A stretch of DNA of 64,000 nt, taken from the NCBI RefSeq assembly GCF_032116555.1, contig NZ_CP134951.1, positions 62,001 to 126,000 on the forward strand. Reading direction: 5' to 3'. This document shows positions 5,010-10,304 of the stretch, one piece after another. The DNA is from Halorarum halobium. GTDB taxonomy: Archaea > Halobacteriota > Halobacteria > Halobacteriales > Haloferacaceae. A model generated the notes under the pieces. That model worked only from the letters and a program-made list of their open reading frames with translations, ran no database searches and had not been told where the DNA came from. The position numbers and the translations under genes were made by a program. The stretch's first letter is position 1. Each line of letters starts with the position of its first letter.

Positions 5010-5444
5010 ATGCCAGACATCGACCGTCGGAAACTGCTCGGACTCGCAGCGACAGGACTGGCAGCCGGGCTGGCCGGCTGTGGCTCTCCCGGCACGGACG
5101 AGGGCACCGAACCGCTCGAAACGGAGACGGTGGGCGACGGAGCGGAGACGGAGGAGGAGACGCCGACGGAGACGGAGGCCGAAACCCCGACCGAGGCCGA
5201 GGACGCGACCGAAACCGAGGCGGAGGCCGGGGTGGGCAACGAGACTGAGACGGAGATGGGTACGGAGACGGAGGTCGGAGTGGGTAACGAGACGGAGATG
5301 GGCAACGAGACGGAAATGGGTAACGAGACTGAAACGGAGATGGGTACGGAGACGGCAATGGGCAACGAAACCGGGACGGAGACGGCAATGGGTAACGAAA
5401 CCGAGACGGCAATGGGTAACGAGACGGAGACGGAGACGGCCTGA
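5010..5444 (+). CDS. Small Tat lipoprotein made almost entirely of Glu/Thr-rich (GNETETEM-like) repeats
   Basis: MPDIDRRKLLGLAATGLAAGLAGC (twin-Arg plus lipobox) followed by low-complexity repeats. Confidence 0.8.
   Translation: MPDIDRRKLLGLAATGLAAGLAGCGSPGTDEGTEPLETETVGDGAETEEETPTETEAETPTEAEDATETEAEAGVGNETETEMGTETEVGVGNETEMGNETEMGNETETEMGTETAMGNETGTETAMGNETETAMGNETETETA
5230..5440 (+). repeat. Coding tandem repeats of ~18-24 bp (e.g. ATGGGYAACGARACSGAGACG)
   Basis: Visible repeated units encoding MGNETETE / MGTETA. Confidence 0.85.
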
Positions 5445-9044: not shown

Positions 9045-9076
9045 CCACTCGGTTGTAATCGAATACAACCAAGTGG
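9045..9076. other. Imperfect inverted repeat with 13-bp arms and 6-bp spacer; candidate recombinase binding/crossover site
   Basis: CCACTCGGTTGTA-ATCGAA-TACAACCAAGTGG, 12 of 13 arm positions complementary, 37 bp before the recombinase ATG. Confidence 0.6.
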
Positions 9077-9113
9077 TTATTTGTGGGTCGACGCCTTCGG
9101 GTCGGCCCACGAC

Positions 9114-10304
9114 ATGGCCTCCGCAGACGACGCCCGGTCCGGGGAAAGCGAGCCGCCGCTGCGTCGGCTCGTCGACGACTTCCTCGAATCGAAGGCGGAG
9201 CGCGGCTCCGGCGCGTACGCCGCGAGCGCCGCGTCGGTGCTCGATCGGTTCGCCGAGTGGCTCGCGGCGCGGGACCGGACGCTCGCGGATCTCGACGACG
9301 AGCGGCGGGGCCCACAGCTCATGCGCGGCTACGCCAAGCACCTCCGACGGCGGGCGAACGCGGCCGACGGCATCTCGGCCGCGACGGCGAACACCTACTA
9401 CGCCTACGTCTCGGGCTGTCTCGCGTACGGCGTCCGGGACATGACGCTCTCGGTGAACCCCGCCCGGAGCGAGACGGCCCGGGAGGAACTCCCCGCGGCC
9501 GAGGGGAAGCGCTCGGACCAGCAGTTCTGGAGCCGCGACCAGCGCGACGCGCTGGTCGAGCACGCGGCCCGCCGGGCGTCGACGGCGATCGAGGCCGAGC
9601 CGTTCGCGGCGCTGACCGAGGCCCGCGATCACGCGCTCGTCGCCACGCTCGCGTTCGCGGGCGTCCGGGGCGCGGAGGTGCTCTGCCACCGGAAGGACGA
9701 CCGGCGGGGTCGCCAGGGGCTCCGCTGGTCGCGGGTCGACCTCGACGACGGCACGGTCGAGGTGCTCGGCAAGTCCAAGACCGAGGGGAAGCGGTGGCAA
9801 CACGCCTCCCTCCCGGGGCCGGCCCGCGACGCGCTGGCGACGCTGAAGCGCGTCCAGCGCCCCCCGACGCCCGACTGGCCCGTGTTCGTGACGGATCACG
9901 CGCCCACGCTGTGGTCGTGCGCGCGCGAAGAACTCGGTGACGAGCGGGTCGATGACCTCGTGGCCGAGCACGGCGACGTCGGGGCCGTCCTCCGGGCCGA
10001 AGCGGTCGTCCCGCCGGCGCTCACCACCGACGGCGGGCGCTCGGTGCTGCGTCGACTCACCGACGCCGCGGGGATCGACCTCCCGGACGGGGCGTCGTAC
10101 CTCAAACCGCACGGCGCGCGCCGCGGCATCGGCGAGGAGCTGTACCGCGTCGACCGCGGGCTGGCACAGGACCTGCTCCGGCACGAGGAGCTCTCGACGA
10201 CGAAGGACCACTACCAGCACATCGACGCGGCAGAGCGCACGGCGGCGATCGACGCCGAACTGGAGCGGCTCGACGACGAACGTGGGGACGACGAGCCGCG
10301 GTGA
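9114..10304 (+). CDS. Tyrosine recombinase/integrase (XerC/D-like) with N-terminal core-binding domain
   Basis: Catalytic set R (GVRGAE), K (LGKS), HxxR (PHGARR), H (LRH), Y (HYQH); start at MASADD. Confidence 0.9.
   Translation: MASADDARSGESEPPLRRLVDDFLESKAERGSGAYAASAASVLDRFAEWLAARDRTLADLDDERRGPQLMRGYAKHLRRRANAADGISAATANTYYAYVSGCLAYGVRDMTLSVNPARSETAREELPAAEGKRSDQQFWSRDQRDALVEHAARRASTAIEAEPFAALTEARDHALVATLAFAGVRGAEVLCHRKDDRRGRQGLRWSRVDLDDGTVEVLGKSKTEGKRWQHASLPGPARDALATLKRVQRPPTPDWPVFVTDHAPTLWSCAREELGDERVDDLVAEHGDVGAVLRAEAVVPPALTTDGGRSVLRRLTDAAGIDLPDGASYLKPHGARRGIGEELYRVDRGLAQDLLRHEELSTTKDHYQHIDAAERTAAIDAELERLDDERGDDEPR

Follow-up and report, generated by a model that had tools for sequence, protein, structure and literature searches.

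The recombinase locus and its palindromic site

The window, a 64,000-nucleotide stretch of the Halorarum halobium genome, lies on C3, a 196-kb secondary replicon; the other replicons are the main chromosome C1 (3.32 Mb) and C2 (159 kb). Both C2 and C3 carry orc/cdc6 and a ParA-like gene. Within the window, among transport and fatty-acid genes, a palindromic site stands directly upstream of a tyrosine recombinase gene (Table 1). The two arms pair with a single mismatch (positions 9050/9071), and the left one reads CACT-CGGTT-GTA, the family consensus being YACT-N5-TTA. The ATG at 9114 follows 37 bp past the end of the site. An earlier note on this DNA had described 13-bp arms with one mismatch, an ATCGAA spacer, 37 bp to the ATG and an adjoining TTATTT, and the sequence agrees on each point. 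The usual TATA spacing of haloarchaeal promoters is the basis for reading TTATTT as a promoter box. The one-sided motif to the right of the site is a candidate accessory element that might give the site its directionality.

Table 1. Features of the recombinase locus (positions within the window)
Feature	Position	Strand	Remarks
Left arm of predicted recombination site, CCACTCGGTTGTA	9045..9057	+	conserved core 9046-9057
Spacer ATCGAA, 6 bp, predicted strand-exchange region	9058..9063	+	
Right arm, TACAACCAAGTGG	9064..9076	+	family consensus TAA-N5-AGTR; abuts promoter box
TTATTT, putative TATA-like box of recombinase promoter	9077..9082	+	
One-sided conserved motif, consensus CGCYSTM	9092..9098	+	AGC often ~5 nt further on
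Tyrosine recombinase, 396 aa, core-binding and catalytic domains	9114..10304	+	family fam30-003

Of 3000 dinucleotide shuffles made from the 457-bp intergenic region, 11 contained a 13-bp arm pair with at most one mismatch around a 4-10 bp spacer, so that locally a chance origin of the repeat is improbable. The geometry by itself is not rare, 13-6-13 repeats numbering 26 genome-wide; the window palindrome, with 47% GC, is the only one of these below 60% GC. As the earlier note had reported, the window holds no second copy, and the genome scan that it had proposed was likewise negative. The palindrome region gave no match in Rfam, and a bacterial promoter and terminator scan, which does not cover archaeal promoters, returned nothing. 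Elsewhere in the window (5131-5433), imperfect tandem repeats of 18-24 nt apparently encode an acidic low-complexity stretch.

The earlier note had also considered an island attachment site. That suggestion is not supported for this locus: the site occurs once only, the window has neither a tRNA nor a GC step, and the metabolic neighbours are common to related plasmids. Among named relatives, the two closest lie on plasmids of Halobaculum halophilum (81%) and H. salinum (78%) and have the same spacer as the window; the former shares the downstream genes, the latter neither flank.

The H. halobium genome has one family-type site on C2, one on C3 and none on C1. When a matrix built without these two sites was scanned over the genome, exactly the C2 and C3 sites were recovered (scores 46.0 and 37.9), the best score on C1 being 6.9. 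The site lies 0.27 and 0.30 of the circle away from cdc6 on the two replicons (hand arithmetic), and GC skew is flat on both. At the C2 paralogue (G000:C2:1820-4272, L251) the 11-6-11 site is free of mismatches; the gene is oriented towards a parA pair and stands back to back with a second family gene, which is 5'-truncated. Upstream of the nine other PF00589 genes of the genome, the best inverted repeats reached 7-9 of 11 pairs, and no site of this type was seen.

The recombinase and its family

The recombinase ORF is uninterrupted by stop codons. Its product passes the PF00589 threshold, if weakly (29.1 bits, cut-off 27.1), and all six catalytic positions are filled (R185, K220, H333, R336, H357 and Y367), which bears out the earlier description of an intact tyrosine recombinase. 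Among 112 aligned proteins (those of the 119 loci described below, less six broken or short sequences and one identical), R185, K220, H333, R336 and Y367 are invariant, and position 357 is H in 94 and D in 18. A family profile of 81 sequences aligns with XerD over both domains (E = 1.8e-9). The structure model (pLDDT 91.8) has Cre, XerA and XerH as its top folds, Cre being the best match (TM 0.57/0.68, identity 14%), and no arm-binding domain is seen in it. A fold from the single sequence reached a pLDDT of 39.8, and a PDB search with the single sequence gave no relevant match. R309 is also invariant and sits in a helix aligned with the TRQTFWHRIK segment of XerD; by analogy with Xer structures, this helix may read the invariant ACT/AGT of the arms.

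Family fam30-003 is the label of a 226-member cluster, built at 30% identity over 60% length by Badel et al. 2021; the main text of that work does not carry the label and gives the entry neither a site nor a function (PMC8371274). The window protein was assigned to it through three named homologues (H7, H23 and H31; 44-50% identity over 76-79% of the query), all three of which, as tested, the cluster lists. Membership in the group of the pR1SE1 integrase was rejected, the three homologues belonging to another cluster. Against the XerA model NF040815 the protein scored 26.5 bits, below the cut-off of 220. The Arch1 consensus, compared by eye over profile positions 140-191 only (PMC8138268), does not fit the window protein; it fits a chromosomal paralogue, G000:C1:1335618-1336178 (-). 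Judged by its sequence, this paralogue is a candidate for the main-chromosome Xer; no recombination site was identified for it.

Conservation of the site across the family

We collected 119 loci, comprising the best matches of two genome searches, 60 chosen regions (closed genomes favoured), two site-less homologues and the C2 paralogue. In this non-random sample, whose relatives are not independent and which includes a few duplicates or contig-end cuts, a leave-one-out matrix located the site no more than 500 nt ahead of the gene in 84 cases out of 119 and farther upstream in three more. The distance from site centre to first ATG is 53 nt in 48 loci, 54 in 12 and 50 in 10. The ATG found 50-54 nt past the site does not share the reading frame of the recombinase in several clades (L024, L027, L028, L030 and the C2 paralogue), where it may open a short upstream ORF or leader. 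The TATA-box score at linked sites has a median of 8.9.

An unbiased scan of spacer lengths over 116 loci found at least 11 of 13 pairs around a 6-bp spacer in 36 upstream regions, five downstream regions and no shuffled region; odd spacers occurred in 0-2 upstream regions. Arm positions 1-11 are paired in 54-76 of the 82 unique sites, position 13 in 34 only, and positions 3-8 in 54-69, as against 25-38 expected with independent arms. The spacer is variable and not self-complementary across the family, its outer pair being complementary in 11 of the 82. Conserved arms at a fixed spacing upstream of homologous genes, which the earlier note had proposed to look for, are thus present in the 84 loci; its palindrome with a 6-bp spacer stands, whereas the paired arm across homologues is 11-12 bp long, not 13.

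The difference between arms shrinks from 0.51 at 30% protein identity to 0.05 at 90%, and mid-arm bases vary on both sides in concert, tracking the protein clade. Because site and gene are inherited together, such tracking alone is no proof of recognition. Co-resident enzymes of different clades have unlike arms (differences of 0.27-0.73 in nine pairs), an indication that the partner of the site is the recombinase and not a single host factor. Recognition of the palindrome by some other protein, such as a host regulator or a partition protein, or a role for it as an RNA hairpin, seems to us highly improbable. The centromere-like position of unlinked sites of family f17 (see below), in the origin-proximal half of their replicons, would suit a protein of this kind, but the arms track the recombinase clade and not the host. 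As for a hairpin, the 161 mismatches at arm positions 1-11 comprise 42 G-T, 28 A-C and 91 others (hand sum), with no clear wobble preference, and Rfam gave no match.

Distribution over genomes and replicons

Genes of the fam30-003 type were found in 307 of the 401 Halobacteriales genomes searched, and none was found in phage records or viral contigs. About 260-267 plasmid records carry a family gene and 420 have a Cdc6 match; thus, many replicons persist although no linked gene is present. Sixteen of 52 loci, taken as 6-kb segments, include a ParA-like gene. Gene and site are both absent from the Haloferax volcanii plasmids pHV1, pHV3 and pHV4.

A 53-nt pattern searched in 64 near-closed genomes at a 2-mismatch limit returned 93 rows (30 for the reversed-pattern control), 24 of which were non-palindromic or a reverse duplicate. 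The remaining 69 sites, judged palindromic by eye, lie off C1 in 62 cases and on C1 in seven. Among the 49 that were retrieved and confirmed, a family gene stands within about 3.5 kb downstream in 42 and is absent in seven. In five genomes of genus g11, whose chromosomal genes form a site-less clade, a relaxed pattern found no conserved unlinked site. A family-type 11-6-11 palindrome on one main chromosome (G133:C1:741820, L289) has no flank motif and no family gene within 4 kb.

More than one site per replicon is seen on G124:C4 and G258:C2 (three each) and on contigs of G217 (several). In G124, the sites at C2 41554, C4 141294 and C4 183657 have the same spacer and two of them are inverted on one replicon, an arrangement that would permit inversion or fusion. 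Identical copies near both ends of G014:C2, G077:C7, G130:C3, G429:C2 and G430:C2 look like untrimmed circular overlaps rather than true duplications. The records G121:C2, C3 and C4 start at or just before the site, which falls within their first 160 bases with three different spacers.

Two expectations about placement were not borne out. The site does not mark the terminus: sites are not opposite the origin in the H. halobium genome, in family f17 or in genus g5, the distance between site and cdc6 being 0.03-0.25 of the circle in f17 and 0.34-0.48 in g5 (hand arithmetic). Nor do co-resident replicons avoid shared spacers, which occur, among pairs with matching right arms, in 4 of 19 co-resident pairs and in 15 of 269 pairs between genomes.

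Lineages in which gene and site have parted

In genus g5, a core-only pattern matched a site in 13 of the 14 genomes, in none of them on C1; the remaining genome, a single contig, also lacks the gene. Intact gene and intact site lie 16-285 kb apart on the same contig in eight of the 14, and no palindrome was found upstream of these eight parted genes. Further cases include gene and site on different contigs of one genome and a genome (85% complete) in which no gene was found. The gene neighbourhoods of the five unlinked g5 sites that we compared are at least partly different.

Family f17 has one intact gene per genome in all five genomes, and these genes form a site-less clade. The site consensus there is CACTTCCGCTTA-N6-TAAGCGGAAGTG, and its reversed control gave no match in nine genomes. 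In four genomes, the site is present on 5/5, 6/6, 5/5 and 2/3 of the Cdc6-bearing secondary contigs (18/19 in total), with spacers that differ within each genome, and no site was found on C1 at a 2-mismatch limit. Likeness of consensus is what ties these sites to the f17 enzyme, to which they would belong. Among 22 unlinked f17 sites, picked on the core alone, the TATA score is below zero in 17, and the right-hand motif is kept in 11 against a background of 0.25%. Unlinked sites without the usual motif include some with a second right-hand flank, a C-run with GGGA or GGTA, mostly followed by CTATGC (L269, L273, L275, L277, L280 and L285).

The constant distance to the ATG and the contact with the TATA-like box could also be those of an operator through which the recombinase only represses itself, its true recombination target lying elsewhere. 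We regard this as very unlikely: sites remain intact at a long distance from every family gene even as their TATA box and ATG decay, and displaced genes have new promoters and no palindrome. A replicon that lacks the gene would not retain an operator but would retain a resolution site, so the retention of sites without the gene argues for a recombination site, not an operator alone.

Possible traces of exchange at the site

A clade of 33 modules with a mean amino-acid difference of 7.9% differs by 2% in right arms, 10% in left arms, 51% in spacers and 35% at four-fold sites. None of its 18 closest pairs has a spacer in common, all have identical right arms, and in 17 of the 18 the right-side identity extends up to the spacer and is followed by a largely unrelated left flank. 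Such a homology break would fit crossover at the site between replicons; gene conversion between modules, ending where homology ends, could leave a similar one.

Breaks of this kind in the closest pairs are also what inter-replicon crossovers would leave if the enzyme were mainly an integrase or cointegrate-former, with the site as an attachment point at which one plasmid is joined to another, or to the chromosome, and later excised again. Integration is the role favoured for plasmid 'XerA' genes in the available text of PMC13532300, and the seven sites on C1, together with the identical spacer found on different replicons of G084 and G124, would agree with it. However, each of the seven chromosomes has one site and not an integration pair (at the 2-mismatch limit), the structure model lacks the arm-binding domain, the family was not found in phages, and the window, with neither a tRNA target nor an island signature, holds no element flanked by attL and attR. 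Since gene conversion could give the same spacer break, and a single site on nearly every f17 plasmid suits maintenance better, we consider integration unlikely as the main role.

In several loci two-gene cassettes stand between site and recombinase (L122, L126, L141, L145, L146, L149, L150, L026, L029, L049 and others), mostly in one near-identical clade. They contain DUF7342 with a 152-aa protein, HTH-nucleotidyltransferase pairs, an HTH with a weak PIN match, a DUF7437 HTH with another protein, or an HTH with a protein that we take to be PemK-like. These look like toxin-antitoxin pairs, sometimes stacked. The differing cassettes recall the pdif sites of Acinetobacter plasmids, at which gene modules are shuffled, and the site could chiefly be a joint of that kind, as the excess of spacer over four-fold-site difference in the clade and the clustering of extra, partly degenerate copies on some f17 plasmids might suggest. 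Nevertheless, the secondary replicons of H. halobium and most replicons examined have one site, and the cassettes start about 100 nt to the right of it, unbounded by a second one; shuffling as the chief role is therefore still less likely than integration. The extra f17 copies themselves, half-degenerate and sometimes 1-3 kb apart on single plasmids (G133:C3, C4, C6 and C7; G178:C2; G217), are possibly pdif-like module joints.

A probable resolution system for secondary replicons

The palindrome is very probably the cognate recombination site of the adjacent recombinase, and the main job of the pair is probably multimer resolution of secondary replicons. We likewise think it probable that both hold together, the palindrome being the crossover site at which the pair resolves multimers of the carrier replicon. 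The earlier note had proposed just such a recombinase with its cognate site, and this reading fits best with the geometry and conservation of the site, its linkage to the gene, the intact catalytic residues and the distribution over replicons. By the chemistry of simple tyrosine recombinases, each arm would be bound by one monomer, two sites on a dimeric plasmid would synapse in a tetramer, Y367 would cut where the 6-bp spacer meets the arms, and two successive strand exchanges would yield two monomers. The motif at 9092-9098 would belong to the site and might tilt the reaction toward resolution. Enzyme bound to the right arm would occlude the TATA box and so limit its own expression; for such self-repression we see about as much reason to believe as to doubt. 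In lineages where gene and site have parted, a single enzyme would act in trans on the sites of every secondary replicon.

Several known systems resemble this pair. XerS/difSL of streptococci and lactococci likewise has one recombinase with an adjacent site as a single module for dimer resolution, but difSL, as described in PMC5357621, is a chromosomal, FtsK-controlled site with 11 bp at its centre, whereas the haloarchaeal site has a 6-bp centre and occurs mainly on secondary replicons. Archaeal XerA/dif, in the accounts of PMC2958812, PMC8371274 and PMC5357621, also has a single enzyme and an 11-6-11 site, linked or unlinked by species. By contrast, fam30-003 sites are on plasmids and off the terminus, have their own arm consensus and go with proteins scoring below the XerA cut-off. 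A single main-chromosome site in the termination region, as in XerA/dif, is not what we find, H. halobium C1 having none and most sites of the 64-genome set lying off C1. The loxP site has a 13-8-13 geometry. The haloarchaeal site differs from it in its 6-bp spacer, its overlap with the promoter of the gene and its conserved one-sided flank motif, and several replicons appear to be served in trans in some lineages. As expected of a resolver of the Cre/loxP kind, the gene is found on secondary replicons (putatively low-copy) with the site on the replicon served, although exceptions exist. Cre, too, is a simple tyrosine recombinase encoded by its replicon, where it resolves P1 dimers (PMC8138268), and self-encoded resolution systems occur on mid-size plasmids (PMC11724359, as far as its available text goes). 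The haloarchaeal pair would work like Cre/loxP or XerS/difSL but belongs to neither of these systems, nor to XerA/dif.

A 2026 report places a single Xer-like 'XerA' gene on 75% of the haloarchaeal plasmids related to pHdsl9-3, among which it names a plasmid of Haloplanus sp. GDY1; it reports that a recognition site for these genes was sought in vain (PMC13532300). The GDY1 plasmid NZ_CP098516 carries one fam30-003 member, with site. The plasmid 'XerA' is probably a fam30-003 member; no accession linking the two was found in the part of that report available. In the literature on haloarchaeal tyrosine recombinases, Xer/dif and plasmid dimer resolution, which was mostly open-access so that an older report is possible, the site is not described. 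The enzyme-site pair is a widespread system of salt-loving archaea, and its target site is apparently without prior description.

A wider picture can be drawn, though we hold it tentatively and consider it rather doubtful as a whole: a haloarchaeal Xer/dif-like system for secondary replicons, in which domestication of the gene-site module, on two or more occasions, left one enzyme to serve a site on every plasmid, the one-sided motif gives direction without FtsK, the 6-bp spacer labels the replicon, and megaplasmids are now and then fused, split and reshuffled by crossovers between labels.

The role in termination of the 12 xerC/D-like genes of H. volcanii is given as undetermined in the portion of PMC7776575 available. 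For dimer resolution in polyploid, multi-replicon haloarchaea, an exact candidate site is now given for a widespread recombinase family. The large H. volcanii plasmids, which are without the system, would offer a clean test background if the chromosome is likewise free of it, and the natural enzyme-site pairs, which number over 80 and differ in their arms, are a possible source of orthogonal salt-tolerant recombinases.
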